64,000 bases of DNA, from the NCBI GenBank assembly GCA_973895155.1, contig OZ316896.1, forward strand, positions 20,838,152 through 20,902,151, in the 5' to 3' direction. The stretch's first letter is position 1. Each line of letters opens with the position of its first letter. Under the pieces are notes generated by a model. It searched no databases, was not told the DNA's origin, and saw only the letters and a list, made by a program, of their open reading frames with translations. Both the position numbers and the translations under genes were made by a program. The DNA comes from Marsupella aquatica (lineage: Eukaryota > Plantae > Marchantiophyta). Below, in pieces: positions 114 to 58,313 of the stretch.

Positions 114-354
114 AGGGCGTCTGAAAGCTAACAATTTGATGGACCTTACTCCCTCATTGCAGGTTACGGGCACAAAAAGTTATGGACTATGAATTCGCCA
201 TAAGGATTGGTCATATGCCATAACCATTAGTCATTGTAGAGGCTGGTGACAGAGAAAACAAAAAGATCTTTGACATAACCTTGTGAAAAAAATTAGAACC
301 ATTCCTTTATGTCCAAATGACATCTTCCATAATTTATAAGCTTTGAGACCCCCT
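114..354. mobile_element. Non-autonomous PHIS/Pangu-like MITE (241 bp)
   Basis: TIRs AGGGCGTCTGAAAGCT / rc AGGGGGTCTCAAAGCT (14/16); ATT on both sides (111-113, 355-357); TIR resembles that of the 24507-30629 element. Confidence 0.7.
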
Positions 355-9700: not shown

Positions 9701-10351
9701 GGCTGTTGGAGGGACCCCCAAACGAGCGCTGTTCAGTCTCTGGCGGTCCGTTCTTTTTGTCGGCAGCGCCGAGCCCGAGGGTCAGAGGGCTCAACTTTAA
9801 GGATCGAGGAGGACGAGAGAAACGAGAGATAACAGAGACGACGAAAAGCAAGACGACAGTGTAGATGAGAAGCAAAACAACGAGCAAACCAACGAACGAA
9901 CGAACGAGCGATGCATTTGTCTCGAGACGCGTTTTGCTCATCTTTGCTCTTCAGTCAGATCTGAGGCCGGTGAATCGTCAGTGGAGTGAAGAGGAAGGCG
10001 AGCGCCCGTACTTCAGGCTGTTTCGTGGTTTTTAATCCGCAGACGAAGACGAAGACGAAGAAGAAGACGTCCGGTGTGGTGCGTGGAGAACAGGTCGATC
10101 GATCGGTAGGTTTACTGTACGTTGGAGTGGGTGGAGTTTGGTTCTGTGATTTCGGACATCGAAAGAGCGGGAATAGATTGATTGATTGGGTTTCGCTGCT
10201 GAGAACAGCGGAGGAAGGTTTGATTAGATCCGCATTGTTTTGGGTGATTTAGGTTTGAAAGCGTTGTGAGCGATCGGTTGGAGATTGAGAGAAAGAGAGA
10301 GGGGAAGGCAAGGCGAGGCGGAGGAGGAGCGCCAGATCAGATCGTCTCAAA

Positions 10352-18949: not shown

Positions 18950-20950
18950 CTAAGGGAGGAGAAGAGAGGGACTCCACGAAGCAACCAGCTGCAATCCATC
19001 GGCGAGATCTTGGCAGGGTTTCAAATATGGAGCAACTTGAGCTATCTCCTTCCCATCCACGTCCTTGTTGAACGGACAGTCAAACTTGGAGACGGGGAAT
19101 TGAAAGCACGCATCCGTGGACTGACCCCGCACACAACTCCTGTTGCTGTCCCCTGGACGGCCACGCTGGAAGTCTATCAGCCATGGAGTCAAACCCCCAA
19201 GCCCTTGTGCTATTTGACCGTATGTTGATTGTGGACTCGTCACAAGCTCATCGACTAGTGACAAACAAATAATCTCCAAAAAGGCCTGATGGTCGCCTTC
19301 CAGATCAAAGGCTTGGAAACCATACTTGGACAGCTGAACAAGCTTCAGGCTCACCCTTTCCCCCTTCTTCTTCTTGAGTGGTTCCTGATACTCCTTCTCC
19401 AAATGCTCCCACAGCCCTGGGAAGAGTGAAGCTATGAAGATGACCAGAGGACCCTCAGTCTGGCTCAACCGTGAGGCAGCAGCTGGATCAGGAATGAGGC
19501 CATGATTCAGACCACATTGGCAGATCCGCTCGTTGACTAGAGTGTTGAGATTTCTATACATTCCAATTCCATCCCTGTACCTCACTTGCATCCCAACCAC
19601 TTTGCTTGCACTATTGAACTCCTTGGTATACATACCTCGCACCCTTCGCCAGATGGAGTCCACCGGAAGGGTCAGCTGGCGGAGAAGGTGTGTCACTGGG
19701 TCCCTGTTGGGAAACAGGTCTTCCAGAACCGGCTGAAAGGTTGGAATGGCAAATAGGTCAGGGAGGAAGTAGAGGCAACCGTTGATGAAATTTATCCATC
19801 TCACTCGCTGAAGACGCTCATGCTCATTGTCACAGAAGAATCTAGAATGGGGACCCCATCCTTCATTGGCTTGAACGTGATGGAAATAAGGGGGGGGCGT
19901 GTTTCCTGACGCGTCTTCTCCGATCATCATCAGTCTCCTTTCCACAAACTGAGCGGTCATTTCCTCCTCCATGCTACTCAATCCATCCCCATTTGCACTT
20001 GAAACAACTTCTGCCTGAATCCTCGCCATTGTGTGTCTCTTCTCCTTTGCTATGCTCTGTGCGTCGAGGATCCTCAATCCATCCTTGTTTGGAGTCTCTG
20101 CATTTTTCACACTCTCATGCTCGACTACCAGTGCCCTGTTGTCCCAATTATCCCAGGCTGTCTGGAACTCGCTTGGCTGGGGCCAGTTCAGATTCGAAGA
20201 GTATGGGAAATCAGAAGGGAGACCCCAAGAGGAGCCAGGGAAAGGCTCACAGAGAAGACTAGGAATGGTGGAATCGGTGTCAATGAGCAGAACTCGTTTG
20301 GTGAGCAAAGCATACTGATAGGCGGAGACCAGCCACAGCAGCCGGTTTCCAACTCCGTGTGTGCCAAACTCAACGACTGCGAATTGACAAGGAGTGCTGC
20401 TTTCGTTGCCTGATTCGAACAGCTTTGTCACGTATTCCATGTTTCCTCCATGAGTGCATGTCCGGTGGAGATTGGCATACTCATTGAACAAAACTTTCCT
20501 GAGAGTGGATGACTTACTTCCCTGCTGGTGGGTAGTCGTTGTGTTGGTGATTAGAGGAAATCTCTTCGGCTTGGTCCACAACCGAAACAGGTGCTGCCTC
20601 CCTGCACATGGGTTGGCTGCATCCCAAGCCTTCCTCCGCTCTAGGGACAGAACAGAGTTTGGCACTCCTCCTGCCGCTGCTATGGCCGCCCGCGTTTCCT
20701 CCACGAGAAGCCATCCAGGGGATCCCCCTGACTCCCCCAACTCCTCTTCGGCGTCTTGACGAATGAGAAATGCCTCCCAAGGATCGGCAGTCTCGACGTC
20801 GTCCTGAATTCTCCCCTCCCGAAGCGCTCCGTTGAAAACCAAGCAGAGGACGAGGCAGAGGAGCATCATGAGAGCCAAAGCTCGTCGCCTGCTGAACCGC
20901 AACAGGAATGGGCTAACGTTTATCCTTTTCATGCATTTGTTAAACGTCAT
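18950..20950 (-). CDS. GT37 (xyloglucan/AGP-type) alpha-1,2-fucosyltransferase family protein, single exon; first ATG at 20950
   Basis: N-terminal type II membrane anchor; GVGNRLLWLVSAYQYALLTKRVLLID, LLCEPFPGSSW, FFCD, VGMQVR and LVTSPQSTYGQIAQGLGGLTPW match the FUT1-family pattern. Confidence 0.9.
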   Translation of the reverse strand: MTFNKCMKRINVSPFLLRFSRRRALALMMLLCLVLCLVFNGALREGRIQDDVETADPWEAFLIRQDAEEELGESGGSPGWLLVEETRAAIAAAGGVPNSVLSLERRKAWDAANPCAGRQHLFRLWTKPKRFPLITNTTTTHQQGSKSSTLRKVLFNEYANLHRTCTHGGNMEYVTKLFESGNESSTPCQFAVVEFGTHGVGNRLLWLVSAYQYALLTKRVLLIDTDSTIPSLLCEPFPGSSWGLPSDFPYSSNLNWPQPSEFQTAWDNWDNRALVVEHESVKNAETPNKDGLRILDAQSIAKEKRHTMARIQAEVVSSANGDGLSSMEEEMTAQFVERRLMMIGEDASGNTPPPYFHHVQANEGWGPHSRFFCDNEHERLQRVRWINFINGCLYFLPDLFAIPTFQPVLEDLFPNRDPVTHLLRQLTLPVDSIWRRVRGMYTKEFNSASKVVGMQVRYRDGIGMYRNLNTLVNERICQCGLNHGLIPDPAAASRLSQTEGPLVIFIASLFPGLWEHLEKEYQEPLKKKKGERVSLKLVQLSKYGFQAFDLEGDHQAFLEIICLSLVDELVTSPQSTYGQIAQGLGGLTPWLIDFQRGRPGDSNRSCVRGQSTDACFQFPVSKFDCPFNKDVDGKEIAQVAPYLKPCQDLADGLQLVASWSPSLLLP

Positions 20951-23164
20951 TTTGAAGTCGCCCACCTGCCAAATCACACGAGTGCTACCCCTAGCGCCTA
21001 CGAAATTCTCGTTCTAGTATTACTGATGATTCCCAAGGCAAATTTGGTAGCGTTGCGTGAATACCCCCATTGTTTCTTCCCGGCAGGGCAGTTTCTCACG
21101 GGTGCTGTACTGTCAGCTGGCAGTAAGATGGCAGTCCTGCACTTAGATTCAGAAACGCTCAAAAAATCCTGTCCTTGGAACGTAACAGAAACTCCTCAAA
21201 GATTTGGGCCAAAGCTACCGGACTCGTCTGCATAGTTACAATAATTTTGGGTTAGTTAATTCAGTCCACAGCAAATCTCTCCGTTCCTGCGAGTGTACAC
21301 CAAAATACTGTTTCCACATTTGTCTCAGTCATGCACAGACTACGTGCCAGGTACAGTTCAGAAAAATTGAGTGGTTTTCGTGCGCTATGATATGCTGAAC
21401 TTAAATTTCCTCCATTAGCTGAATTTCTCTCCTTGCATTCTTAGCATATTTATGCATCGACTTTTGAAATAGAGGAATCCCTGGTGAGAACAAACCTCCA
21501 AAGGAATCCATCCGTGTCGATCTAACCAGCGTTCAGCTTCAGCTGACGCCATGCCGACTCTGAAGGTTGATTTACAGCAAGTTGGAATGACCTAAATAGG
21601 ACGTTTAGTCTGCAATCCATCACGTCCATCGATAAAATATAGGCAAATCATCACTTTCAGAGCCCAATGACGGCATGTGTCCGCTTTCACAGCTTCTAAT
21701 ATCAGACAAATCCCGGGTGCCATCATATTCATCCTTCAAGCTTAGCATTCTCACAGACAGGACCCTAAAATTGACTACAGCGCCTCCTGTTCCATTCGAA
21801 CTCCATGAAGTCAGCATATAACTAAACGGTGTGGAGGAAGATTGAAAAAAAACCATCCTACAATATGGAGCAGAACTGTTAAAACAAATTAAACAAAATC
21901 GTTTATAAATTTAAAAAATTGATTCAATTATCGATATCATTACACGCAAAAGCGTCGTTGAAAAAAACTAGCAAAGCCTGATCCGACATAGTGAATCGAT
22001 GTTAAGGGTAGAATGCCTGTAACTAGAACATTGAACGGAAAACTATACAGAGGGCCCGACAGCATTGGAGATAGGGGAGAGACGTGCAATTCACACAGGC
22101 CCGATGCGAAATTCCGGGTGATCTAGCAACTAACCTGCTGAACGAAATCCAATAACTGATAGATTCATGGATTCAACGACGCGGGTGGCAGAAGCCTGAT
22201 CCGCAGAATCCTGATCCACTGATGATTTTGAGCAAAAGATTTATCCTGTCCTAACCTAGAAAGGATCCTCTGCCCTGCAGCCCACAACAGGCCCTCAACG
22301 ACAACAAAAAATATCTCCAATTCCCGCGCAGCATCGCCCCAGCCGGCCATCCCTACCCTGTTCAGTACATGACGTCCACGTTCGTTTCCATTCGAACTTC
22401 CACTGCTTCTCGCTCCATAGTCTGTCCATGGGCGTTTGTCTATCTACTCTGTAACCCTCCTTGTCATGCCTCCGAACGAAATCATCAAATCTCGGAACGC
22501 CGTTCCTCTCTCTCGCCCTCTTCGTCAGTCGGAGTAACGTGAGCAGCACCCTCTCACCTCCTTCCGCGAGAATGGAAAACAAATAATCCCGCCAAGCCAC
22601 ACTTCTTCGCGCAATGGCACTGAACCCGACCAACTCAGCGTGTCCTGCACCCCAAAGCAATTCCCATTCTTGTACATTTCGAAGGATTTTCTCTTCACCT
22701 CCCAATACTCCTCACTCCCCTCGCCTCTCTAGAATCCATCTCCGGGTGTCTCTCTCTCTGTGTCGTTGTGCTCCGAATCGTGAATGCACCAAGCCAGTTC
22801 TCCACTCATCCTCTGCTCCACCTCGATTCTCCTGTTCTTTACTAGAGAACTCTGCCTCTGGATCCCTCGGCTCTCGTCTGTGAAGCTTTGGGAGCTCAAT
22901 TGAATTCCAATCCAACACATCAAATTTCTCCTTCGGCCCTCCTCATGGACCTACTGTAAAGGAGAGAGGACACAGGACGGCGGAGAAATCCATGAGGTTC
23001 GACAAATTCAGCAATCATCATAGATGACGACTCGTCGACAAGCAGTCAGGCATATTCCATGCACGGAGAGTTAGCTGGGTAGCAATAGGCGGTGCAGAAT
23101 GGGCACCTTAGTTTATTAAAGTTTTATTTTGGTTTTAGCTAGGGTGTCCAATGTGAGAATCTAA

Positions 23165-23499
23165 GGGCTGTCTTGCATGTGCAAGAGTCCTCAAAAAAGT
23201 GGCCCTTACCAGCCCACAAATGTAGGGAAAAGTGCAAACCAAATCTACCAGGAGTGGGGAGCAGATACAGGGGAAAAACGTCCAGAAGTCTAGGTCGAAG
23301 ACGACGTGTTATGTCTACCATTTTGTTTTATTATGATTTGAAGGTTGGGGACCTCAAGGGCCGGAAATTTTCCGGCCCTTGCCCTTGCAACTCCACCAAA
23401 GATGGCGTCAAGACTGCCGAACTGTCGCTTGATTAAAAAAAGGCCACGGGTTCATTTCAGGGCCGGAAACCAAAAGACCTTGTACATGCAAGACGGCCC
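23165..23499. mobile_element. Tourist-like (PIF/Harbinger) MITE, 335 bp
   Basis: TIR GGGCTGTCTTGCATGTGCAAG / rc GGGCCGTCTTGCATGTACAAG; TAA TSD at 23162-23164 and 23500-23502. Confidence 0.8.
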
Positions 23500-23729
23500 T
23501 AAAGCCCTGATGGACCCAGACATTCTCCTGCATGCCTAACCCCAGGGACTGCAAAAAGTGATTGTTGCTTTAATCAAAAGCAAAGGGAGCAGATAGTAGT
23601 TGACTACTTTTGGCTACCTGGTGGAGAAAATAGTCAACACATCCTTTTTGAAAATGGTCTCTTTTCAATGTAATGTAGTCTGAATGGCTTAGCAACTTTA
23701 TTTTATTTTTATTTTTTAATTATTGTTTT

Positions 23730-24503
23730 CAAAAAACAAAACCTTTATTTCAATGGGAAAAAACAAGGCGCCAGCCTAGAGGAGGAGACAAGAAAGGACC
23801 AAAAGGACCAAAATAAGGGGGCTAAGAGAGGGAGCACCCTAGAGAGAAGAGAGAGGGCCAAACTAAACCAGTACGCCTAATGGGAGGAGACGAAGGAGTG
23901 AGGAGAAGATGACCCCAGGAAGCGGAATGATGTCTGCCACCAAACTGAACCTAAATGATGAGAAAGACTAAAGGAAGGATGAGACACAACCATAGCCAGA
24001 AATCCTGCTAGAAACAGCCTAAGCTAGCCGCTTTCCCCATTCTCCAAGTCAAAGCTGCCACTTGCAAATTCCGCACCACCAACCACACCTCTAACATCCA
24101 AAGGACATCCACCAAACCATACTAGAAGAAAGTTCAGAACATAACTCTGGGCCTTCCAGGGCCCCAACATCAAAGAGAGAGCCTCCTGCCAATGTCTCCT
24201 CCCATCACAACCTTTGTGCACCTCAGGGAAGATTATAGAGGTCAGCCTGATATATCATTTTGTGCTCTTGCAACAGGACCCTGGGAAGGGCCATGGGCTA
24301 AATCAAGAACCCGCTACCAAAGAGGAGTGTAGTCAAATCCGGTAACTTGATCAGCCATCCATCCTGCAGAGAGAAAGCAACTTTTCACCAAGTCCAAGAA
24401 TGACCAGGAAAGATAGATACCGCATGGGCTCCAGATAATCAGGAGAGAAAAAGGAGATTTCCGGATTTCCAGATATCAGAGACAAAAAATGCCGTAGAAA
24501 TAT
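23730..24503 (-). mobile_element. Probable degenerate LINE 3' fragment, target of the Pangu-like insertion (may continue at ~30633-30800)
   Basis: Broken zf-RVT-like C..C...EETL..LF and LW..W..RN-like residues on the minus strand, followed by AATAAA. Confidence 0.35.
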
Positions 24504-24784
24504 ATTAGGGCATCTCAAATATGGTTTTTTATTGGATCTTTCGGGCCGCCCGCAAGGCACTCGAGTCACCCGCAACATGCTACTACCGGGCAACTATCTT
24601 GAAGGGTCATGAAATATGAGACGGGTCGCGGTTGAATATGCAACTGGGTTGCCCCCGTAACTGCGTCGTGGGTGCTCATGCAAGTTGGTTTCCACCTACT
24701 GCGGTTAACCATACATAGACAACGTCGACGCCTCACTCTGCTCCCCCCCTCAAATTTTTGAACGCGCCGACAATTACAAGCTCC

Positions 24785-26414
24785 ATGAATGCTTTGGACG
24801 AATGCAGCGACATTTCAAATTGGCATTCCCTCGCTCAATTTGGGGCTGAGCCTGAATTCCGCAGGATTGACATTACAACAGCAAAAATGGCAAGCACAAT
24901 AGGCATTTCTCCTGGCAGATCTGAGGTGAACAATCTTGATTTTCCTCCTCCGCATCAGTCCCGTTGTTCACATTTTGAGAGCGTTATTCCTGACTCCCAA
25001 CTTCCTGAATCGCTCCTCGACATGGTGCCACCAGCTTCTGCCATGGCTCCAGGTGGGGACAATCGTAAGCTGTTGCCAGTGCACCTTGCTCACATCGTGG
25101 ATTGGCTAGAAGTGCCAGAGAACTTTGCTATGCTCAATGGGACCAGTAGCCGCCCTTCTGTTACTGGCAAACATCCGCCAAAGAAGACTGTGTTTAAAAA
25201 GATGCTTATCTACCTCCATGACGTTGGTTTTCCTAAATTTGTCGCCACAGGAGATAACCTTGGGAAACGGTTTCAACGTTTCATAAAAAAGTACAAGGAG
25301 GCCCTGGCGATGAAGCAAGACTCTGGTGCAGGATTAACAGATGCTGAATTGAGACAAGGTCTTACACTGGCAGATAAGTATGAGAAGGTGTGTCCCCATT
25401 TCGAGCGCATGCATGCAATCTATGGGGAGAGAGCAAATGTGTCACCTCCCAGCACAGCCGCATGTGGGTTACAAGGGCATCAAGAACTATACGTTGATGA
25501 GGGTTCGGATGACGATGAGCTTCCTGAATCATCATTTCCAATCCACAATGACCTGGAACTACCACAATTTAGGTAAGTTTATGTCTTTCTCTTTTGCCTT
25601 TAGAGCATCATGATCATTTTTCGGCAATCATAGCTGGATGTTTGCCAAAATTGGATTGTACACAAAATGGACTGTGAGTAGTTATATAATTGGGTTTCAT
25701 TTTTCACTCTATGCAACCGACCACAATTTCCAGTTTGCTCAAACCATCTCCGAAGATGACGTCGAAGGCGGTCCACCTCCTGCTGGAGGCAACACCTCAG
25801 TTGATGAATCGCTGCCCAATACTCCAACTGAGACTCAATCGCAGCCTGCATCAAATTGTCCTAATGTGGAAGAACCAGTCCCAACTCCAACTTCCAACCC
25901 GGCATCCGCACCCACACGACCACACGGTAGGAGCAGAGGCACGACATCTGCTCATCCAACCATCACACAAGAGCGAGGTAGTGTACGACCTCGGCAAGGC
26001 AAGAGGCCATCGCCCACACAGGCTAGCTCTAGGCCCGATCTAGCTGAGGTGTATGTTGAGAAATTGCAAGACAAGAATGCTTTCAGAATTCAGATGATTG
26101 ATGCAAGGGACAGATGGAAAGCTCAAGAAATTGCTGACAGGAAAGAGGCCAGAGAATCAGAAGCATTCAAGGAAAAGATTATGATGGATGCCAAATCGGC
26201 AGAGTTGGCTAAAAGGGATCGGATTCAACGTAGACAAGAAGAAAAACGAGCAAGAATTGACCTTCATCATCAGCTGGCTATCATCAAAGCCCAGCAAGCA
26301 ACAGTGCTATTAACAGAGATTCTCAAGCAAGACAAGGGGCCTGATCACTTTAAGATAATGATGGGTATTATACATGCTGGAACTACGATTGCCCCAGATG
26401 GGTCAATCCCATAG
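24785..26414 (+). CDS. Transposon accessory Myb/SANT(trihelix)-like DNA-binding protein; exons 24785-25572 and 25634-26414 (possible further 60-nt intron 25674-25733)
   Basis: IVDWLEVPENF...KKYKEA...SGAGLTD...EKVCPHFERMHAIYGERANV resembles Harbinger ORF2 proteins; acidic/Pro-rich linker and C-terminal coiled coil; a GTAAG...TAG intron joins the two ORFs in frame. Confidence 0.7.
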
Positions 26415-27010
26415 TTGTATTTACTTTGTTGTTGTAGTAATAGTAGTAGTAGTAGTTACTGCTGCTATTATTGCCAACAGCTTGTACAAAAATCTACCGG
26501 ATCCAAGACCTCAGTTTTGCTCCATGGCCGAGTGGATGTCATTGGTAATAAAGGGGCCCAAGAAATTTCCTATATCAATTCAATTGATCCCTATGTGTTA
26601 TATGGTTTACGATTTTTGTCAGAATTTTTGCTTTGACTGAGGAAATCTGTCACTGAGGCAAACGAAGTGACAAATGCAAAATCGTGCAAAGGCAAAACCT
26701 ATCTGTAGGAGCGTTGTCATAACACAAAAATGAGGCATCAATGAACGTGAACTGTCCATTGAAAAAACACAGCATGAACTCGTAGGGCAGTGAGCCAGTG
26801 TTAGGGAAAAAAACTGTCGAACAACTTCGACTCTTTCCATTCATGAAATCAAAATTACATGTTCAAAATCTACCAGATTGGATAAGCTGCTATGTGCCAT
26901 TGCAATCTCCAACGAATGAGGAGTAAAAATCCAGAACTGGGGTAGGGGCAGAGGCCCTTCTAGAACGGATAACTACGTAATGCGCAAGGAAACCTGGCCT
27001 ATTGTCTGAT

Positions 27011-27539
27011 TCAGGCAGTGGGCGGTCCACTATCCAGTGCTTGACCACTCTGGTCCTTGCTTCCTCCTTGCTGTGAACGCTCCATAGAAGACACCTCGCC
27101 CAAAGTGGACTCCCCAGTAGTAACTGACATTGTTGTTACTGTGCTTGAAGCCTCCAAGTCAAAATCGTCAACGCTTATGACTGGTAGATCAGGCATAGGG
27201 ATTTCCCAGTAAGGGCGTGCTGCCTCTCTCCCAAAAAGAACCGCCTCTGAATAGAGTAGGGCTCGCGTGGCCTCGACTTCAAGGACTTGTACACCACGGA
27301 AGGTAGCGTCAAAATTTTGCACCCCTGAATGTGGTCGCTGGAAGGCAAGCCGAGGTGCTTTGGGCCACAATGGAAAGCCACGTATAGCAATCCACATGGT
27401 GGCATCAGTTTGTCCCTTTCCTACAAGCCAAAGCCAAGTGTTCTCCATTCCCGTTGCTTCTCGTTGCTTCTCAATCACGAACAAAACTGGACTTCCTGAA
27501 TGCTGCGTTTGGCCGAATGAGAACTTGAAAATGTAAACT
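27011..27539 (-). CDS. Unknown-function ORF inside the transposon (5' end uncertain)
   Basis: Open frame of ~175 codons (VYIFKFSFGQ...WLWLVGKG...WIAIRGFPLWP) preceded by a TTGCAG acceptor; no recognisable motif. Confidence 0.4.
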
Positions 27540-27776
27540 CTGCAACTCTACAGCTTTTGGTCCAACCAAAACCGAGCTCAAAGTCAAACAAAACCTGAGG
27601 CTGGAGGACTCGCATGCTGGTCACATGAAAACGCAGTCGGGTACCTCACATGAAAACACCTTCAGTTGTCCATTGACAGTAGTACCAGATGTACCAAAGG
27701 TACTTTGAATGGTCTATTTCTTGAAAACAAAACGTGACACAAAGGACACATGCTTAAACCTGCCAAGTGTGCAGAG

Positions 27777-29296
27777 TTACTCCCCCACGCTGCATAGAAA
27801 TCTTCCAAGGGTCCTATTAAATTGCAGGGCAAAATCCATGACCTGCACTAGCAAGGCATTTCCTGCCTGTGATGTTGCTCGCCTTGATGCCCTAGGACGT
27901 CCTTCATAGTCGGATGGGTTAGCACCATCCACCTCAACCTGGTCATCCACCTGGTCATCTTCTGTCCACTCATCATTTTCACTAATGACATAATTGTGCA
28001 GTTTACAACAAAGGGTAATCCATCTCACCATCCAAAATGAATCCTTTTTTTGATTTAGTTGCACTCTTATCTCTTTCAGTGAATGCCACGGTGACTTAAG
28101 AACTCCAATACAATGTTCATTTGTAACTCAACATATTGCCACACAAGTGTTGAAGTCCTCTCTGTTGTTTGATAGATCAGCTCGTTTGAAGGAACATACA
28201 AAATGGGGACTGGCCTGGTAGCCAGAGTCACCCAATAAATATTGCCCTTCTTGGAACAATATGTTTGGACCCACCTGGTTGCAGTAGTCCCACAAGGGGG
28301 ACCTCCTGAGGCTAGTCAAGTCAACACATGATCCTGGCATTCCTGAATCATTCCAAACTTGAAGTTCAGTGGCTGGAAGAAATTCAAACACATAATTACA
28401 AGAGAAAATAAAGAAATAGTTATGCAAAAAAGGATCAAAGTACCTGTGAACATGAAAGTAATTCTTCGGTTGTGGTCACACACAACTTGTGTGTTAATGG
28501 AGTACCGGCTCTTCCTATCATAGTAGCATTCTCCATGTTCCTTTGGGCATTGTGTGAGTGGCATGAGGGACCCATCAATGAGCCCTACACATCCTGGAAA
28601 GCCATGTGCTGCAAATGTAGCCGAAATGGCCACTCTTTCAGTAGGCTCTGGCCAGACAATTTGGTCACACAGCACAGCCTCTAAAGCCACAAAACACCGC
28701 TTGCTGAAGTTGACTAGGCTGCCATAACTAACTCCCCAAGTTGGTATCAAATGGTTTATACAGGCCCCATTACCATCATGGCCAAGTCTGTCAAGACAGA
28801 CAGCTAGCTGTGTAATTATGGGTGCCTGACCATAATTTGATTGGGATTCAAAAATGGGATGAGATTCAATTTTGTTCACCAGACCAAAGAATGTTCGCTT
28901 ATCCATTCTGGTCAGCTGTCTGAAAAGTGTGGCAGGCAAGTTGTGGAAGTATTGGGTCACAAAATCAGCTGACTTAGTAGTCACTTGTCTTGGCACAAAG
29001 AACCTGGTGTTATAAAGCACAAAATACAATTCAAACATAGAAGTAGGAGTTTCCCCTTGAAATTCATGTGGATCATCTGAGATCTTTGAATCTTCACTAC
29101 TAGAGTCCATAGGTAACTCACTGTCTGATTCTAATAAAAGAGAGGCATTGCCCTGGTCCACTGCCGAGAGGTAGCCCATTGAAAGGTCAAGAGAGTCTGC
29201 ATCGGATGAAGAGTCTGAGGACTCCATAGCAATGTTTAGTTGAAGTTGATGCCTGACTGCCCTCAACTGTTTTTGGCGCTTTGAAACATGAGGCAT
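27777..29296 (-). pseudogene. Harbinger/HARBI1-type DDE transposase; exons 29296-28444 and 28342-27777; one internal TGA at 28130-28128
   Basis: FRQLTRMDKRTF, QLAVCLDRLGHDGNG, GFPGCVGLIDGS, YYDRKSRYSINTQVVCD, GMPGSCVD, YLLGDSGY, C*VTNEHCIGVLK, CCKLHNY; the frame continues past the stop. Confidence 0.88.
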
Positions 29297-29488
29297 AGTA
29301 AACGAAGCAGAGTACTGGAAAAGGTACAACAACAATGGGGCACATTGTTCAGAGTCTAACTACTACTGGTACACATAAATTGCACAATACCCATAAACTG
29401 AATGACATAGAATATACACAACATGAATTCACCAATGGACGCTTTATATGCAAAAACTGTCAATACATATGAGCAAATGATTGGGAGT

Positions 29489-30169
29489 CTAGTCTGACAG
29501 GTCAGTGTCCTCAAGAGCTTCTATCAAATCAGCTAGGATTTTTTTGGCACTCTTTGGCTTCGTAGGAGTGCAATCCCACTGTGGGATTTTTTTGGGTGTA
29601 CCCTGGTTGGGCGAAATTGCTACGCTTGTACCTACATGGACCCCAGGACTGCTTGTACATGCATCGTGCACAAATGCCAAACGCTGGATGTGCAGCTCCA
29701 TATCTTTCACCTCAAGCCACACTCGCATTTTAGGACATTTCTGCAATACTTTGTGGACAGTGAGTAGTTGTTGGATTTCATCTAAAAGGCTGAATTCCCT
29801 TGGTTGTACATTCAAGAGCACAGTTGCCTGATCCCAGATCAGGGCTTTGAGTGGAGGGGTGCCGCCGTTCACAACATCAAAGAGAATTAGTTGAAATCGG
29901 TATTTTGGCTCCCCAAGGGCAGAATGCCCACATTTTCGACCAAACTCTAGGGATTTCTTACAGGCTTTGCCAGGCTCAATGGGTTGAGAACATCCTGAAT
30001 ATGTAAACTTCCTTGGAAAAGGATTTCTCGCGCAATAATTCCCTGCCCAGACTAGCGAAGGAGGAAAGGACTCGGTTTTGCCTACAAGCCTTGCGTCCTC
30101 CACCACTGAAAGGGAAGTCCAGTCCCCCATGGCCTGGAATGCCACATGACACAGAAATTTCAAGCCCAT
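29489..30169 (-). CDS. RPA1 C-terminal-like OB-fold/zinc-ribbon protein carried in the transposon (alternative start 30130)
   Basis: FTYSGC..CKKSL..CGH..PKYRFQLILFD..ALIWDQATVLLNVQPREF fits the Rep_fac-A_C pattern YxAC..CxKK..C..RY.l...D.....fd..a..llG; intact 226 aa. Confidence 0.6.
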   Translation of the reverse strand: MGLKFLCHVAFQAMGDWTSLSVVEDARLVGKTESFPPSLVWAGNYCARNPFPRKFTYSGCSQPIEPGKACKKSLEFGRKCGHSALGEPKYRFQLILFDVVNGGTPPLKALIWDQATVLLNVQPREFSLLDEIQQLLTVHKVLQKCPKMRVWLEVKDMELHIQRLAFVHDACTSSPGVHVGTSVAISPNQGTPKKIPQWDCTPTKPKSAKKILADLIEALEDTDLSD

Positions 30170-32109
30170 AGCTATCTAAAAGGCAGAATCGCATAAAGGC
30201 ATTTCATATTGCAAGTTTTGATTCAAAGACTTCCTTACAAATTTGAGTAGTCGGGTGACGAACTGTTTCAGGCCGCTGCACAAACAGTCGTCGATGAAGC
30301 TCGTTGAAACTCACTGCTCGTGAAGAATGCTCACCAAGCTGACCTGATCCAAGGGCCCTCGATGAAGCACACTCGCGTCGAGCTTCTTCGCAAATTTTCC
30401 GCTCTGTGTCGCGTGGCTCTGCCGCGCTAAACCCCTAAGCTGAACTCCTAAACCCTTAACCTTGGTTACGCGCAGTTGAGCGCAGTCGGGCGCTCATTCT
30501 CGGTCACGGAACCCGGGCGTGACTGATCCGGTGTCGCATGCGACGCCCGACCAGTCATGCATGTTGCCCCGACCGGCTACAGTCTCGGGCGCGGTCATTC
30601 GTAAAAAAAATGCATATTTGAGACGCCCTATTAGAGTATCCCGAGAGAAGACTCTCTCCAGAATACGTGTCCGGTCCTCGCTGCAGCCCAACGGAGAATG
30701 GAGAAAGTGGTGGCCCAGGACTGAAGAAAAGTTGGCCAAGGAGCGAAAACATGAGACCCCAAAGCAAAAGGAGACTGCCTCCATCATTGCTGTTCAGCCG
30801 TAACTAGATGGAAATTTGACTATTCCACATTAGCTCAAAAGAAAATAAGGGAAAGATCCTGGACATCTATTTGCTTGCAATAATCCATGGACCCCCTTGT
30901 TTCTTTACATAATTAGGGTGTTTTAAATTAATGAGCTTAGTTGGAGTTAGTGTTTTCAATCATCCTTACTGACATTGTCATCATTATTCTCACCAGGAAC
31001 AGCTCTTTGTTGCAAGACCCATTTGCTATTGCATGAAAATTTGTTCTCTTCCTCTTCCTCCTTGAAAAAATTCTGGACTCTTTATGTCATTTTCATCCTT
31101 TTGCCAGGAAACTCTCCCTACCTGTATTGCCAGGAAAATAGATTGCTTGAAGGGAAGGGAGCCGTTCAAGCGCAGATAATTCATTTCAAGTGCTCATTTG
31201 CAAAAATGTTCCTGGAGTGATTACACATTTTGTTGGCACACCCTGTAAGTTTCTTCCTTGTGCTGAAGTTGGGCCTGCATAAAACATTGGAGAATGAATA
31301 TATCATTCCCCATAGTGGGCTACCCTACAGTTCTGCATGATTATTGTCAACTAATGGGTGGATACTCGTTTGGTTAATTTCAAGGGGGAAGGAAAAAACT
31401 TCCATGGAATGGAAGTAAAGCCAATCAACATCCACCAAGTTAAATGACTTGCATGCCCTTAAATGAAATAGAAATTCTCATTGATATATTGAAAGGACAA
31501 TTTAAAACAGAAAATACAGTCCATGTTGTACGGGAGATTTCCTATGGTCTGTTTACAAAATTTCTTTCCGACTCGAACGGCCTCCAACTATCGGGGAGCC
31601 TCTTTGGCCATTCAATTATTGTGACATTTCTTCCTAACCATGAGGGTCCTAAAATTGTCATCGTGCACCTTTTGCCATGCCCAACCTCATCACTCTCCCC
31701 ACAACTCGCACATTCCTTGAAATCCAGTTCATTGTGAGACCGGTTCATGAATTATAGTCTTTGATTCAATATTTAGAATCTGTTTGGGTAGTTAGAGGCA
31801 TGGGAGTATGTGGCCTTCCTGTGCATATCACGGGTATTGGGGCTGGTTAAAATTACTCACGGTGAAGTGTAAAGTGAGACACCTTGGCTATGGTGGAGGG
31901 GATGCGCACAAGTATTCAGGCTCGACAGTTGCACTTGTGCATGTTGAATTGGCCTTAGTTGCACTTATGCACTGATAGTGGACTGTAAGTGAGAAATCTC
32001 TACTATGGTGGAAGGAGGAGAGGCCCTACAAACTTGCCGACTCAGGGCATGAGACATGCCATGGCATTGTCTAATTCATCCAACCTAGCGTTGGGTAGTA
32101 CCTGTAGAA

Positions 32110-32719: not shown

Positions 32720-33810
32720 TTCATGCAGTGTTAGATTCTTCTAAGGGAGAAGATTGAAGAGAGGGACTCCCATGAAGGAACCATCTACAATCCATAGGTA
32801 AGATCTTGGCAGGGTTTCAAATAGGGGCAACTTGAGCTATCTCCCTCCCATCCGCATCCTTGTTGAATGAACAGTTAAACTTGGAGATGGGGAATTGCAA
32901 GCATGCATCCGTGGACTGTAAACCCGAAACCCTACACACAACTCTTGTTGTTGTCCACCGGATGACAATGTTGGAAGTCTATCAGTCATGGAGTCAAGCC
33001 CCCAAGCCCTTGTGCTATTTGACTGGATGTTGATTGTGGACTTATTAGAAGCTCATTGACTAGTGAAAACAAATCATTGGCCTGATGGTCATCTTTCAGA
33101 TCGAAGGTCTGGAAACCAAACTTAGATAGCTAAACAAGCTTCAGGCTTGCCCTCTTGTCATTAGAATCTTGACGGGTTCCCCAAGTGGTTCCTGATATAC
33201 TCCTTCTCTAAATGCTCCCAAAGCCTTGGGAAGAGTGAAGCTATGAAGATGATCAGAGAGCCTTTGGTCCAGCTCAACTATGAGGTAGCAGCTGGATCAG
33301 GATTGAAGCCATGATCCAAACCACTCGTTGACTATTGTGCTAAGTTTCTATACATTCCAGTTCCATCCCTGTACCTCACTTGCATCCCAACCACTTGCTT
33401 GCACTACTAAACTCCTTGATATACACATTTCGCACCCTTTGCCAGATGGAGTCCATTGGAAGAGTCAGCTAGCGGAGGAGGTGTGTCATTGGGTCACTAT
33501 TTGGGAATAAATATTTCATAACTGGATGAATGGTTGGAATGGCAGATAGGCAAGGGAGGAGATAGAGCAATTGTTGATGAAATTTATCCATCTCACTTGC
33601 TGGAGATGCTCATGCTCATTGTCACAAAAGAATCTAGAATGGGGACCCTGTCCTTCATTGGCTTGAAAGTGAGAAATAAGGTTGTTGTAGTGGGGGGGGG
33701 GGGGGGGGGTCAATTTCCAGACATATCAATCTTCTTCGGTCATCACAATCTCCTTTTCACATACTGAGCGGTCATTCCTCATCCATGCAACTCAATTCCG
33801 TCCCCATTAA
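32720..33810 (-). pseudogene. Degenerate copy of the 3' half of the GT37 fucosyltransferase gene (source ~18920-19993)
   Basis: Colinear nucleotide similarity (AGATTCTTCTAAGGGAG, GATCTTGGCAGGGTTTCAAAT, GAAATTTATCCATCTCAC); peptide ANEGQGPHSRFFCDNEHEHLQQVRWINFIN; many stops and frameshifts. Confidence 0.9.
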
Positions 33811-37995: not shown

Positions 37996-38281
37996 CCCGG
38001 GGGGGTTGACTATCAAAAATCTTAAGAATCACGTACGATCCAAAATATGTATTTTTGATAAAAATTAACTAAATTTTTAAAAAGCATAGGAGGCAAAAGA
38101 AGGTATTATAAACTCATGTTATATGATATTCCCTAAAATACATTTTTTATAAAGTAAAATAAGTTATTAATATTGAAAATTGAGATTAAATTTAATTTAA
38201 TTTTTTATAAAATAGGTTTATTTATATTAGGCTATGAATCGCACATAGTATCTCAAAATATATACTTAGTTAACCCCCAAG
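37996..38281. mobile_element. AT-rich MITE copy, inverted relative to 40148-40433
   Basis: CCCGGGGGGGTTGAC...GTTAACCCCCAAG; interior is the reverse complement of 40148-40433. Confidence 0.75.
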
Positions 38282-38351
38282 CTCACTTTCTCTGCGGTTT
38301 CACTCATCTTTGCTCGAGCTCTTTCCCACTATTCAGATTTTGACAATGCAT

Positions 38352-38690
38352 TAGACTACTAACTTCCTTGAAGTCTCTCCAGTTCTTTCCTTGGCAGCGG
38401 TTTAGAATTTTTCCCTGTACAGCCTTTGTGGGCCACTCCTCAAGACTTGGGGCAAGTACAACACAATGGATTTAGAGTGCTTTGGCCAATACCTTGCATA
38501 GACTAGAATAGACTACACTAATTTTCTTGAAGTCTCTCTAGTTCTTTCCTTTGTAGCAGTTTAGAATTTTGCCCTATACGGCCTTTGCAGGCCATTTGTG
38601 AGGACCTGGAGCGAGTACAACACACGATGAGGATGCGTGTACAATAGAGTGGATTTAGAGTGTTCTGGCCAATACCTTGCCTAGACTATT
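38352..38690. repeat. Two-copy ~160-185 bp direct repeat
   Basis: TAGACTAC..CTTGAAGTCTCTC.AGTTCTTTCCTT...TGGATTTAGAGTG..TGGCCAATACCTTGC.TAGACTA twice. Confidence 0.75.
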
Positions 38691-39167
38691 CAAAATAGAC
38701 TATTATATTAAGATATATAAGGTAAAATCTAATTTAAAATCTAATTGAATTTAATATTTTGTCAAGGTTTGTTGTTATGGAGTGAGATTAGATTTGATAT
38801 GTTGGACCACAAGTGGACAAGTGATTGACCTGTCATATTTCATTATCAGCCTTGCTTGATACGCACAATCTTTTCTTATACTCTGAGTTCCTCATATCTC
38901 TTGAGTGAAAATTGTACAGTTCTTTCAAGTTTATACTATTTTTTTCAATTCATTGTGGCTACTTGGTTTAATTTCTCAATGACTCTATTTTGTAGAGCAA
39001 CGGCTTACTTTTTCAACAATTTTTGTTTTATCTTCTCAGATCTATACGAGCAATTTTTTTTAAAATTCTTTAAAATGCCATACTAGAATGAAGTTGCTTA
39101 TAATGACCTCTTGCCTTTCAGATCGATACAAGATACTCTGCCATAGAGAACTTGAAGACAATTTGAG

Positions 39168-39310
39168 TTTGGGGGGTTAACTAAGTGTATATTTTAGAAT
39201 ATCACGTGTAATTCTAACCTAAATTAAATAGACCTATTTTATAAAAAATGTATTCCAAGATTATTCTCCATTTTTTAATAATCTATTTTAATTTAGAAAA
39301 GGTATATGTA
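39168..39310. mobile_element. Truncated third copy of the same MITE
   Basis: GGGGGGTTAACTAAGTGTATATTTT...ACCTATTTTATAAA matches the start of 40148-40433. Confidence 0.65.
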
Positions 39311-39720
39311 CAACTATAATATGCTAGCCCGCCAAATCTGGACTTTAGTCTACTTAGAACAAGTGGAAAAAATGGGATTGATTTGTAACCGTTAGATATA
39401 CCCTATGTATAATTATGACCCTCAAATTCATAAAAAAAAAAGAATGATGGAGGCTGTCGAGACTAGCCCACACCGTGCTTTGGGAGGAGCAAGCCACGAT
39501 CCGTGACCGAATTTGTTTCTCCACCTCTGTTGCTGGAAAGCTTGACGATAATGCTACATGAGCACAGAGCACAGTGCACACCATCAAACCTTTCCAATTT
39601 GGATGACGCTCAAAGAGCTTGGTCACAAACTCTTTTGAGTCAGTGGAGGTTTTCCTTTTCCGTGCCCGGAGGCAAGTAAGTGAGTGACCGAGATGCCTGG
39701 TAACCCTTGGTGTAAGGAGT

Positions 39721-39963
39721 GTAGTGGTAATGAGGTTTCTGCAAAAAATAATAAATATTGGCGCCCAGGGGAAAATGTTATGTTCCAAAAATGGTTGGCA
39801 GTTTTTGGAAATAGGGAGGAAATTAAATTGTAACTAAGTAGAGTAGTGGTAATGAGGTTCCTGCAAAAACTAATGAAACAATAAATATTGGCGCCCAGGG
39901 GGGAAATGAGATGTTCCAAATATGATGAACAGTTTCTGGAAATGGGGACTTAATTAAATTGTA
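39721..39963. repeat. Two-copy ~122-bp direct repeat
   Basis: GTAGTGGTAATGAGGTT.CTGCAAAAA...AATAAATATTGGCGCCCAGGGG...ATGTTCCAAA twice. Confidence 0.75.
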
Positions 39964-40147
39964 GACACAACTGCCGGAAATATTTATGTGAGGAGAGATG
40001 CCCTGGAAAATGGTGTTTTTTTTATTGAAGTATGCAGTGAACACATGTTTTGGCTAGGTGTAGCAAATCCTTAGTAGATTGAGAAAACTATTTGGGCTGA
40101 GGAAAATTAAAAAGTGGACACCCACAAAAGTCAAGGTAACCTGGTTG

Positions 40148-40433
40148 CTCGGGGGGTTAACTAAGTGTATATTTTGGGGTACCACGTGTGATCTTAGCCT
40201 AATATAAATAAACCTATTTTATAAAGAAAATATTCCAATAATATTCTCTATTTTCAATATTAATAACCTATTTTACTTTATAAAGGGTATATATTAAAGA
40301 ATATTCTATAAACACAAGTTTATAATACCTTCTTTTGCCTCCTACGCTTTTTAAAAATTTAGTTAAAATCTGCCAAAAATACCTATTTTGGATCGCACGT
40401 GGTTCCTAAGATTTTTGTAGTCAACCCCCCGAG
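40148..40433. mobile_element. MITE (286 bp) with 8-bp TSD
   Basis: TIR CTCGGGGGGTTAACTA / rc CTCGGGGGGTTGACTA; CCTGGTTG at 40140-40147 and 40434-40441. Confidence 0.85.
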
Positions 40434-45314: not shown

Positions 45315-45487
45315 AGGGAGTGTCAAAGCACAACTGTACCTGAGTTATAGCTCAGGACATAAAACACACTTACCACCATTTGACAAATAATTATGGGTTA
45401 CCAAACTATGTATCCAGTAAGGGTGGTACGTCCAAATAACAAATAAATCCATAACACTTTGGTTACAGGATAACTTTGACACTCCCT
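45315..45487. mobile_element. Non-autonomous PHIS/Pangu-like MITE (173 bp)
   Basis: Perfect 14-bp TIR AGGGAGTGTCAAAG / CTTTGACACTCCCT; AAT TSD at 45312-45314 and 45488-45490. Confidence 0.75.
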
Positions 45488-45886
45488 AATGAGACATGTG
45501 GGAGAGGCTAATGGGAAAGAAAAATACTAGCCAATTTTAGCCAAAAGTGGCAAAATAACTTTGATGCTCCCTAATGAGACATGTGGGAGAGGCTAATGGG
45601 AAAGTAAAATACTAGCCAATTTGAGCCAAAAGTGGCAAAATAACTTTGACACTCCCTAATGAGACATGTGGGAGAGGCTAATGGGAAAGAAAAATACTAG
45701 CCAATTTTAGCCAAAAGTGGCAAAATAACTTTGACACTCCCTAATGAGACATGTGGGAGAGGCTAATGGGAAAGAAAAATACTAGCTAATTTTAGCCAAA
45801 AGTGGCAAAATAACTTTGACACTAGACATGTGGGAGAGGCTAATGGGAAAGAAAAAGACTAGCCAATTTTAGCCAAAAGTGGCGAA
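45471..45886. repeat. 85-bp tandem repeat, ~5 near-identical copies
   Basis: Units start at 45471, 45556, 45641, 45726, 45811 (TAACTTTGACACTCCCTAATGAGACATGTGGGAGAGGCTAATGGGAAAG...). Confidence 0.95.
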
Positions 45887-46731
45887 AGCTTTTTTGGGAG
45901 GTGTAATGTATCGAATTTTCGCCACTAAAAAAAACGCTGGTGTGGGCACTGCCATTCCCGCGCTTTCCAGGGCTCCATCGCTCTGTTCTGAACTCGCCAC
46001 GAATGTCTACCACAGACTACCGTATGAAATAATTGGAGGGAGAGGCGAGAGATTCTCAGGCAGCTCTCCAGCTTGGAGAGTCTCTGCCTTCTCTCGAGCA
46101 TATGCATGACTTCGTCTGGAGCAATTGTAATGTAGAGCATGTGAAAAGGGAAGCCTGTGAGATCTCACTGACCGATGGCTGACCTGAGGGATACCATAGA
46201 GAAATGGGGTGAGATTTCAGTGTGGAGAGTGAGTGAATGGGTGATTGACTGTCCAGCTGAAGGTTACAATTGGGTGTAGTGGTTATAGAAGTGGAGGGAA
46301 CGAGTGAGTGAGTGAGTGAAATCAGCCTCTGGCTTTTCAGACCTCACTGATCGACACCGAGCAGTAGAAGATTGACCTTGGCATTCCACCGACAGATCTA
46401 TGAATTTCAGGTGAAGTCAGAATAGTCGTTGAACCCTCACTTTTAGGGTTCAGAGAGCGAGTGCGAGAGAGAGAACACGGAATGGCCTCAGGGTAATCGG
46501 AGAATTTTGCTGGGAAATTCTGTTTAGGGGACGAATATGGCTGGGTAAATCCCCATGGTCAATGTGAGACCTTCAATTCTGTGAGGAGCAGATTATATAT
46601 TTATGTAAGGGGTGTGAATTTTCGTTGGAACCATCATAGAAGAGAGCTTGAAAGGAAGCGGGGACATTATGGAAGTGAGAGGGAGGGAGTGAATTGCATA
46701 TTGAAGGGGGAGGAGCAGGAGGAAGGTGACA

Positions 46732-56746: not shown

Positions 56747-56948
56747 GCGAGTGCGCGTTGCTATGACGGTTGATCGCCCGTTTCCCGTTTGAGTTGCATC
56801 GCGCGAGTGCGCATTGCTATGACGGTTGATCGCCCGTTTCCCGTTTGAGTTGCATCGAGTGCGCGTTGCGAAGACGGTTGATTGCCCGTTTCCCATTGAG
56901 TTGCATCAAGCCGCGCGTACGTGCGCGTTGCGATCACGGTTGATCGAC
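56747..56948. repeat. ~50-55 bp GC-rich tandem repeat, ~4 copies
   Basis: GAGTGCGCGTTGCTATGACGGTTGATCGCCCGTTTCCCGTTTGAGTTGCATC repeated. Confidence 0.85.
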
Positions 56949-57479: not shown

Positions 57480-58313
57480 AAGTGACAAAGATGCCCCTAC
57501 CAAAAGAGTGTAGCGGATTTCGACGAGTTTCGTACTGTAGAGAGTGAGGGACCAAAAATAGCTTCTGACAGAAACGAAATAGTTCTTAGTTCTATTGGAA
57601 ATATTGTAGAGTGAATTGCTGAGCCAACAAGTAGTAGCCTAGCATCCTTTTCAACCGATAAGGTTGAAGATGGAAGCCTTCCGGATGGTGGGCATGTGTA
57701 TAGGGACAGAAACTGCGAAGTTAATTTACAGCTGAGTCTGACCTTCGAGCGCTGTTTTTGTCCATGAAAGATGCCCTGGAACATCATAATGATCACGCAG
57801 AGTGTATTTCTTTGGTTATAGACATTCAAAAGCAGGTACGGGCGACAATCTACACTTAAATTTAAATTGCGGAAGTTTTGCTCCCCACCAATCTACAAAG
57901 AGAGCCGTCTGAAAAATTCAACTTAGAAATAGATGCCCTTAAATCCCAGAAGTTGATCCAATCGATTACTGTACTTCGCAGCTTTGCTGGCTTCAAATTG
58001 AAGGCTTCCAAAATACTTTAAAGTTGGGTACATTGCGGGGTACATTGAAAGGCACTTGAACTACTTAACCCTTCAGCGACCTGTTGGCCGTCCCAGTTGT
58101 AGCTGCTCATTCGATACCAATCTGAGCTCCCAAACGGAAATGATGAATAAATCAGGTCGCCCAATACGATATGATGAAACAAATCAGGTCGCCCAATAGA
58201 AAACTAAGGATTCTTGAAATGAACGTCACGCATCAGAAAATCAGGACCAATTGTAGGATACTGGGTACGTACCTAAACCCATAAAACGAAGCCGAAGCAC
58301 AAATTGGGAAAGA
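57480..58313 (+). pseudogene. Duplicated fragment of the MSH3 last exon and 3' flank (source ~53793-54568)
   Basis: Colinear match (ATTGGAAATATTGTAGAGT, GCTGAGCCAACAAGTAGTAGCCT, CAGGTACGGGCGACAATCTACA, GAAGCACAAATTGGGAAAGA) with indels and stops. Confidence 0.9.

Follow-up and report, generated by a model that had tools for sequence, protein, structure and literature searches.

The 64,000-nucleotide stretch of Marsupella aquatica DNA analysed here (the window) contains a transposable element of 6,123 bp, whose boundaries at 24507..30629 were observed. An ATT target-site duplication lies on either side of it (24504..24506 and 30630..30632, no strand assigned). The element is bounded by a 17-bp left terminal inverted repeat starting with AGGG (24507..24523, plus strand) and a right counterpart (30613..30629, minus strand). 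These ends form the longest inverted pair within 23-32 kb. One of their 17 bases differs, and the original prediction of matched 17-bp AGGG repeats holds for the ends themselves and not for a perfect match. The predicted ATT duplication is borne out by an empty site: in public runs X3 and X4, which belong to one study of organism B, a contig fuses both flanks through a single ATT. Taken alone, the site at 24507..30629 could equally be read as an element that starts with GGG between two copies of a 5-bp duplication, TATTA; with a 3-bp duplication, starting the ends at GGG leaves TTA on the left and TAT on the right. A separate 241-bp non-autonomous element outside the main one (114..354, no strand assigned) carries related AGGG ends and also has ATT on both sides. 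Its ends are complementary at 13 of 15 positions and identical to the right end of the large element at 13 of 17, and its combination of end pair and 3-bp repeat was found in 0 of 50 shuffles. The 5-bp reading was rejected because this second element is incompatible with it. The targets are T-ATT-A at the large element and T-ATT-G at the small one, a consensus based on two insertions, both at ATT. The full element is present in one copy within the window.

Inside the terminal repeats lie CpG-rich subterminal regions (24524..24740 on the left, 30400..30612 on the right, no strand assigned), in which RCCCG and GCAAC motifs are mirrored between the two ends; the right one includes one 25-bp palindrome at 30517-30560. 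RCCCG occurs five times per 230-bp end at each end, versus 0.13 times per 230 bp in the interior. The observed-to-expected CpG ratio is 0.94 in the left subterminal region and 0.19 in the transposase, and the coding interior is strongly CpG-depleted. The subterminal motifs are likely binding sites for the element's helper protein.

All four of the predicted open reading frames are present within the 6.1-kb unit, of which three are supported genes and one is doubtful; their models were each revised. The plus-strand gene (24785..26414) is an ORF1-type helper gene encoding 502 amino acids without an internal stop, with predicted exons at 24785-25572, 25634-25673 and 25734-26414. Its two predicted introns, of 61 and 60 bp, have GT-AG borders and keep the frame. 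The protein, which may resemble Myb/trihelix proteins, has no match in Pfam, NCBIfam or PDB, and its earlier designation as Myb-like is unconfirmed. When the helper domain and alignments A1 and A2 were compared with PDB by sequence, nothing significant came back.

The transposase gene is on the minus strand. Exon 1 (28444..29296) carries the first catalytic residue, Asp241, and exon 2 (27777..28342) carries Asp323 and Glu360; both belong to Pfam DDE_Tnp_4, the only domain detected by Pfam, and 15 homologues were found. The exons are separated by a 101-bp GT-AG intron (28343..28443, minus strand), whose junction is consistent with unbroken homologues, and the spliced model is 52% identical to homologue P0020 of Calypogeia fissa across 472 columns. 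A premature in-frame stop occupies codon 356 of 472 (28128..28130, minus strand). This codon is a sense codon in P0020 and in other contigs of all four runs. The copy at 24507..30629 is dead, because the stop falls four codons before the catalytic Glu, a point missed by the original prediction. Among the changes listed for the transposase, 9 of 16 are synonymous versus an expected fraction of 0.277 (p=0.015), a count that was drawn from variant tables limited to the best-supported rows (40 of 1151 in one, 40 of 192 in another) and is not a dN/dS.

The third gene (29489..30130, minus strand, start at 30130) is intact and encodes a stand-alone protein of 213 amino acids that resembles the zinc/OB fold at the C-terminus of RPA70. 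The fold contains conserved Cys47, Cys57, Cys67 and His69; downstream of it come a linker of low complexity and then a short helix. The family comprises 123 matches, 81 of them with E<=1e-10, and its members are mostly stand-alone zinc/OB-fold proteins. In 39 aligned rows the Cys/Cys/Cys/His ligands are at least 90% conserved and most rows have a C-terminal helix-like segment; the linker between it and the fold varies and spans some 40 residues or more. Searched against PDB, the family profile matched only yeast RPA70-C (E=0.009), and homologue P0002 is grouped in Atlas with PF08646 (feature score 0.94; TM 0.73 over 138 residues). The predicted structure of the window protein is poor (pLDDT 40). 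With this low-confidence model, the top six VIA rows are RPA70-C or Teb1 OB-C (Z 5.6-6.6, rmsd 5.1-6.1, 126-133 residues aligned), structural identity to RPA70-C structures is 12-15%, and Foldseek gave no match at E<=0.001 (best 7.7e-3). The OB fold with zinc ribbon of PF08646 is present, but the window protein has no Pfam match and falls short of the curated cut-off, which 1 of 63 scanned homologues passed. The gene is genuine, and its family and fold class (RPA70-C-terminal-like zinc/OB) are established; it shares with the RPA70 C-terminal domain (PF08646, Rep_fac-A_C) the zinc-ribbon OB fold, the conserved zinc ligands and a short end helix. Unlike RPA70, members are stand-alone proteins of about 200-300 amino acids that lack the other OB domains. 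With only four variant rows inside the gene, the number is too small to test for selection.

ORF3 (27011..27448, minus strand, 145 amino acids) is of uncertain coding status, with its most likely start at 27448. Its region is covered by other contigs that are 7-11% divergent, so it is present in other copies, and one divergent contig type bridges it to the 3' side of the transposase. A homologue search returned 0 of 54 candidates, and a single-sequence model (pLDDT 41) gave no fold match (best Z 2.8). Among the best-supported variant rows, 7 of 20 listed changes are synonymous versus 0.28 expected (p=0.32; not a dN/dS), which is a neutral level, and the claim of a fourth gene under selection finds no support here. 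When 12 listed rows out of 59 were grouped by hand into indel events, three of four events inside ORF3 keep the frame (p about 0.11); if one more event, which affects the start codon, is included, the count is four of five (p=0.045). An upstream exon beginning with the ATG at 27615 was rejected, because this ATG is altered in other contigs and non-triplet gaps run across the region. On balance we lean slightly towards ORF3 being a real small gene.

The extra reading frames occur in other copies insofar as divergent contigs cover all four ORFs, but ORF3 has no homologue beyond such contigs. A contig of roughly 10% divergence in runs X1 and X2 bridges the 3' end of the RPA-like gene and the 5' part of the transposase. 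The named relatives that supplied homologues of the element's proteins are the liverworts C. fissa and Riccia sorocarpa. Two contig sizes recur between the RPA-like and transposase match lists, namely 3608 (P0021 and P0011) and 2983 (P0143 and P0005), with a chance probability of about 0.001 (7 x 31 lengths); the linkage in other species is based on these matching sizes and not on contig DNA sequence. The window RPA-like protein groups with P0021 (SH-aLRT 97, quick tree) and the window transposase with P0011 (100/99), while P0143 and P0005 each fall outside the window's group in their respective trees. Contig-size matches and congruent trees together suggest that, in two divergent elements, the RPA-like gene adjoins the transposase. 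The transposases of these putatively linked elements are only 49-54% identical. In C. fissa, a more distant RPA-like member is present in three copies that cluster together at 90% and lie on three different contigs, a pattern that a mobile gene would give. The pair of C. fissa proteins that share a chromosome differ by 377 accession numbers and are therefore not neighbours, which counts against linkage there. Judged from these comparisons, RPA-like gene and transposase have very probably been passed on together in divergent elements.

It is rather improbable that the RPA-like gene is a passenger common to several types of mobile element, for example Helitron-derived, and dispensable to the Harbinger-type element. 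Such an origin would fit the depth of the family, in whose tree a second clade holds 49 of 76 rows. From the accessible parts of the sources, RPA genes are present in plant Helitrons (PMC4289320), and TET/JBP genes have been transferred often but passively among transposon lineages (Kojima 2025, PMC12730594). Against it, the gene is intact in a copy whose transposase is broken, its zinc ligands are conserved, and the apparent linkage with congruent trees spans the divergent elements described above. Unlike the RPA genes of Helitrons, which are rolling-circle elements, this gene belongs to a DDE element and is enclosed by its terminal inverted repeats. The features of a Helitron are a Rep/helicase gene and the absence of terminal repeats and of a duplication; here repeats, duplication and DDE transposase are all present.

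The ATT duplication at two insertions, the AGGG ends and the DDE_Tnp_4 domain support the predicted PHIS transposon with an ANT-type duplication and Pangu-like ends. As far as the consulted part of Han et al. 2015 (PMC4482050) goes, the Pangu group is defined by 5'-ANT-3' duplications, terminal repeats of 11-40 bp starting with AG or GG, a DDE transposase without other domains, and a second ORF in which known motifs are usually lacking. The present element has an ANT duplication, 17-bp AGGG repeats, a transposase with DDE_Tnp_4 only and a plus-strand ORF without an assigned family, and its extra ORFs exceed that definition. By eye, the transposase core is nearest to Pangu-2_MLP (26 of 40 identical in a central block of Fig. 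S3 of the same paper, versus 18 of 40 for NuwaI-4_DRer and 7 of 40 for Pangu-3_Tmel, with one NuwaI row and one core Pangu row compared). In the same visual comparison it lacks the core Pangu/Harbinger2 motif, its own motif being of HARBI1/Nuwa type, and Pangu-2_MLP itself lacks the core 'PDG' motif in that figure. The proposed Pangu assignment therefore stands for the ANT site and AG-start ends but not for the transposase motif. From the same partial source, Pangu-2_MLP is Harbinger-3_MLP of Repbase, from the rust fungus Melampsora larici-populina, with AWT sites. The two elements share the AWT/ANT duplication, short AG-start ends, DDE_Tnp_4 and a large second ORF without a Pfam match, and differ in length (6.1 kb here versus 4.3 kb) and in the one or two extra genes here. 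The host here is a land plant, and there is none among the species of Table S3 of Han et al.

With canonical PIF/Harbinger elements (PIF, Pong, Ping), the element has in common DDE_Tnp_4, a separate helper ORF, short ends and a 3-bp duplication. It differs in the duplication, which is ATT at both insertions and not 5'-TWA-3', in the RPA-like gene, and in the helper, where Pfam detected no Myb/SANT domain. From the core motif of the transposase, and from the fact that neither ORF3 nor the Myb label is proven, one could argue for a common PIF/Harbinger element that has two genes and a TWA site, with chance or nested ORFs added. The ATT duplications and the 123 relatives of the RPA-like ORF speak against it; so does the finding that the element contains no internal terminal repeats or duplications of the kind that would mark a nested insertion. 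This reading is already largely refuted and we consider it highly improbable. Other groups differ further. NuwaI and NuwaII target CWG or C|TNA|G, in contrast to the two sites here, and the A|AT|T target, THAP transposase and YqaJ nuclease ORF of ISL2EU are replaced by a different target with no THAP or YqaJ match.

Additional genes are already known in Harbinger-type elements, and what sets the expanded architecture described as unfamiliar apart from them is its RPA-like cargo. In the accessible portion of Kojima 2025 (PMC12730594), HarbingerS carries a SET-domain cargo and PHISTA carries TET/JBP and a third protein. Like both, the present element belongs to the Harbinger superfamily and has conserved extra genes. 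Unlike them, its cargo is an OB fold and not a chromatin enzyme, and where PHISTA has TA duplications, the element has a 3-bp ATT and no ORF that matches a dioxygenase family. The prediction of the RPA-like ORF as an extra gene is supported in that it likely belongs to the transposon family. As far as we found, an RPA-like cargo gene is new for Harbinger-type elements. In the literature outside Repbase, Repbase Reports, subscription journals and bioRxiv supplements, searches turned up neither a Harbinger-type element described with an RPA/OB gene nor a report of Pangu from liverworts. A survey that covered 1007 plant genomes (PMC12973397), in its consulted parts, does not have Rep_fac-A_C among the transposon domains; REPA_OB_2 is confined there to isolated cases in MULEs, and the supplements include neither Calypogeia nor Riccia.

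We propose, with a probability of about 60%, that the locus holds one dead member of a multicopy family of cut-and-paste PHIS transposons (Harbinger superfamily) that make ATT duplications, and that this family likely has a third, long-standing gene, whose predicted RPA70-C-terminal-like product would bind single-stranded DNA in transposition. By analogy with the accessible part of PIF/Harbinger work (PMC2836001), the plus-strand protein would bind the mirrored subterminal motifs and recruit the DDE transposase, which would excise the element and insert it with a 3-base stagger. Where the element is cut out and where it inserts, the RPA-like protein would cover overhangs or gaps of single-stranded DNA while the conserved helix of its tail docks onto a partner. 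We give such a direct role in transposition roughly even odds; classic PIF/Harbinger elements move using two proteins only, which counts against a third working factor.

The RPA-like protein might instead serve as a decoy that ties up host RPA2/RPA3 and loosens the transcriptional silencing of the element, which we regard as unlikely. It keeps the tail fold and helix of RPA70 and lacks the main DNA-binding domains, the recurrence of the helix-like segment in most rows agrees with this, and RPA70-C is a trimerisation domain (the PDB titles of the VIA matches agree). The long variable linker, however, parts the helix from the fold, which is not so in RPA70, and the CpG depletion of the coding interior indicates that copies were methylated anyway. 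In the available portions of the respective papers, Arabidopsis RPA2A/ROR1 is required for transcriptional silencing (PMC3950690) and chromatin cargo (SET; TET/JBP) occurs in other Harbinger-type lineages (PMC12730594), both of which favour a decoy.

The proposed role in single-strand binding bears on two wider questions about Harbinger-type transposons, namely what makes additional proteins necessary and how clean excision is achieved; the roles of extra ORFs in such elements are still unexplained in the part of Han et al. 2015 (PMC4482050) consulted. Because this cut-and-paste element has a conserved gene resembling the tail of RPA, single-strand handling, or interference with RPA-dependent silencing, becomes testable. 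The element would also provide a likely genomic context for a protein family mostly missed by Pfam, and it adds land plants to the hosts of ANT-site elements; the Pangu table of that paper, in its available form, does not include any. More tentatively, a widespread new liverwort lineage of ANT-site Harbinger-type transposons may encode an RPA70-tail-like third working factor, either a transposon-specific ssDNA-binding protein that serves repair in cut-and-paste movement or an RPA2/RPA3-hijacking decoy that lifts silencing, and the rust-fungus element as nearest listed transposase relative raises the possibility of an old plant-fungus transfer. Beyond plants, a prokaryote scan with the helper domain returned 0 of 306, and when viruses were scanned using the aligned transposases, none of 38 candidates held up. 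A metagenome scan (233 pattern matches) yielded one locus, a transposase fragment of 36% identity on a 1.7-kb contig without cargo.

The Pangu-like transposon of the PIF/Harbinger superfamily occupies positions 24507-30629 and is present as a single copy within the 64-kb window, with ATT immediately outside both ends. Its ends had been described as matched 17-bp inverted repeats; the 17-bp span and the AGGG start hold, but 16 rather than all 17 bases match. Four of the five public sequencing runs listed contained 64-84% of the element's sampled words. In X3 and X4, two runs from one study of organism B, one contig consisted of both flanks fused across a single ATT (the empty site), and further contigs carried the filled right junction unaltered. 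Because empty and filled sites occur side by side, these boundaries are those of a real insertion. At this site alone, ATT with AGGG ends is indistinguishable from a 5-bp TATTA duplication with GGG ends. A 241-bp non-autonomous element at 114-354 has related AGGG ends (13/17 identical to the right end of the large element) and is flanked by ATT left and right. The fifth base of this small element contradicts the 5-bp reading, which is thereby ruled out in favor of a 3-bp duplication. None of 50 shuffled windows yielded a similar end pair with a 3-bp repeat. The predicted ATT target-site duplication is therefore borne out both by the empty site and by this second element.

The interior of the 114-354 element is partly repeated at 1-61. 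A 337-bp element at 23164-23500 has 22-bp inverted ends starting with AGGG, and a partial relative of the element ends near 44963. Its flanks (CTA and AAA) have no 3-bp match, and it may represent a small element that is older or of another kind. One X4 contig omits 26562-28330, with 26 letters in between, and is likely an internal-deletion derivative lacking ORF3 and the 3' part of the transposase gene. Organism B has two flank haplotypes at 23922-24247, one identical to the window and the other differing at 22 positions and containing 22 gap letters, as well as both filled and empty sites, which suggests polyploidy, diploid tissue or a mixed sample. A 45-bp stretch at 30881-30926 has many loose ends in several runs and is likely a short dispersed repeat.

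The transposase gene consists of two exons and a 101-bp GT-AG intron, giving 472 codons. Its product matches Pfam DDE_Tnp_4, is 52% identical over 472 columns to a full-length Calypogeia fissa transposase (P0020), and has an alignment-derived catalytic triad of Asp241, Asp323 and Glu360. Codon 356 is a stop in the window copy and a sense codon in P0020 and in contigs of all four runs. Judged from this stop, the window copy is dead and would need help in trans to move. Relative to other copies, 9/16 of the listed changes were synonymous against an expected fraction of 0.277 (p = 0.015). Of 15 transposase homologues, the eight named to species all come from the liverworts C. fissa and Riccia sorocarpa. 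The transposase core was compared by eye with the central 40-column block of Fig. S3 in Han et al. 2015 (PMC4482050), giving 26 identities with Pangu-2_MLP of poplar rust, 18 with one NuwaI row and 7 with one core Pangu row. Pangu-2_MLP is described there as 4,295 bp long with AWT sites and, like the large-element transposase, it lacks a motif common to most Pangu rows. The Pangu-like assignment in the original prediction thus agrees with the target-site and end criteria of that study, but not with this motif. Its Pangu table lists no land-plant species.

Three exons are predicted for the plus-strand gene, whose uninterrupted reading frame specifies 502 aa. The N-terminal domain of the product is helical, the central part is acidic and of low complexity, and the C-terminal part is charged. 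The protein, which may resemble Myb/trihelix helpers, had no match among Pfam, NCBIfam or PDB families. Both subterminal regions of the element are CpG-rich and each contains five copies of RCCCG, with mirrored distances from the ends of 39-41, 85 and 119-120; GCAACATG lies at 65 and 62 from the two ends. By analogy to PIF/Harbinger ORF1 (PMC2836001), these motifs are likely binding sites of the plus-strand protein.

The RPA-like ORF (30130-29489, minus strand) is intact and encodes 213 aa. A three-sequence profile searched against 1.84 billion proteins recovered 123 relatives (81 at E ≤ 1e-10); most of those that are full-length have 200-300 aa. The conservation of Cys47, Cys57, Cys67 and His69 is 90% or higher across 39 aligned rows. 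At the Pfam cut-off, neither the window protein nor 62 of 63 scanned relatives had a match. Evidence of several kinds favors a domain of the RPA70 C-terminal zinc/OB type: the Atlas placed homologue P0002 with PF08646 (feature score 0.94; TM 0.73 over 138 residues), the sole PDB match of the 39-row profile was yeast RPA70-C (E = 0.009), and a poor structure model of the window protein (pLDDT 40) ranked RPA70-C and Teb1 OB-C highest (Z 5.6-6.6). With the same model, Foldseek ranked RPA and telomere OB proteins at the top, none at E ≤ 0.001. In several members of one well-supported subclade (P0098, P0104, P0115, P0089, P0108 and P0111), the C-terminus is extended by a long stretch of unrelated sequence, up to 675 aa, that lacks a Pfam match.

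As to membership in the element, a contig ~10% divergent in X1 and X2 spans the RPA-like 3' end to the 5' part of the transposase gene. Two RPA-like proteins and two transposases share longest-contig sizes of 3608 (P0021 and P0011) and 2983 (P0143 and P0005), two matches among 7 x 31 lengths having a chance of ~0.001. In both trees the window proteins join the 3608 pair and the 2983 pair falls outside, the RPA-like tree being a quick one of 76 rows (150-400 aa, hits up to P0119). The topologies agree with a pairing drawn from contig sizes, which is indirect support. Counting against linkage, 377 accessions separate the two C. fissa proteins, one RPA-like and one a transposase, that share a chromosome. 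A more distant RPA-like member has three copies on separate C. fissa contigs, as a mobile gene would.

Cut-and-paste transposition by a helper and a transposase is established for Ping, Pong and Harbinger3_DR, and the present element would be moved in the same way, as in other PIF/Harbinger systems. The RPA-like protein would most likely bind single-stranded ends and gaps arising during excision and insertion. The main rival is that it acts as a decoy tying up host RPA2/RPA3, since Arabidopsis silencing requires RPA2A/ROR1 (PMC3950690). Ranked third is a passive passenger gene, perhaps Helitron-derived (PMC4289320). Searches of the open literature outside Repbase turned up neither an RPA/OB-fold gene reported for the Harbinger superfamily nor a liverwort record of ANT-site elements. 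The supplements to a 1007-genome survey (PMC12973397), and passages of the Blasia genome paper (PMC13182070) and of a Caenorhabditis preprint (10.64898/2026.05.26.728016), likewise contained neither. The four-gene architecture had been considered unfamiliar from plants, which appears to stand for this cargo but not for extra genes as such: Harbinger-type elements with extra genes are already known, HarbingerS carrying SET and PHISTA carrying TET/JBP and a third protein (PMC12730594).

The ORF3 region is covered at 27094-27462 by contigs 7-11% divergent, and in one contig type the 5' side of ORF3 is joined to DNA just beyond the transposase stop. ORF3 therefore belongs to the element family, as originally proposed, and a nested insert is ruled out. 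Conservation begins near an ATG at 27448, giving 145 aa. Among the changes listed, none creates a stop when adjacent changes are taken as one codon, and 7/20 are synonymous (p = 0.32); three of four internal indel events keep the frame among the 12 of 59 rows listed. Homologue search and fold comparison gave no match, and the balance tips slightly towards ORF3 being a real gene.

The neighborhood of the element holds genes for an AN1 zinc-finger protein, PRA1, a radical-SAM enzyme, a xyloglucan fucosyltransferase and a MutS protein, a set indicative of a land plant; with the named transposase homologues, a liverwort is the likely host. Part of the fucosyltransferase gene is duplicated (19029-19880 and 32824-33672, 13.8 kb apart, 82-92% identity), as is the 3'-end region of the MutS-family gene (53816-54467 and, 3.7 kb downstream, 57504-58203; 82-94% identity). 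At about 38000-40430 lies a 2.4-kb AT-rich element that resembles a Mutator-like or foldback element, its inverted arms of ~280 bp beginning with a run of Gs. Tandem arrays lie at 9454-9702 (62-bp unit), 45385-45894 (85 bp), 56746-56909 (56 bp) and 60672-60899 (19 bp), and LTR retrotransposon sequences include a Copia-type gag ORF (58571-59635) and an integrase zinc-binding domain (61933-62832).
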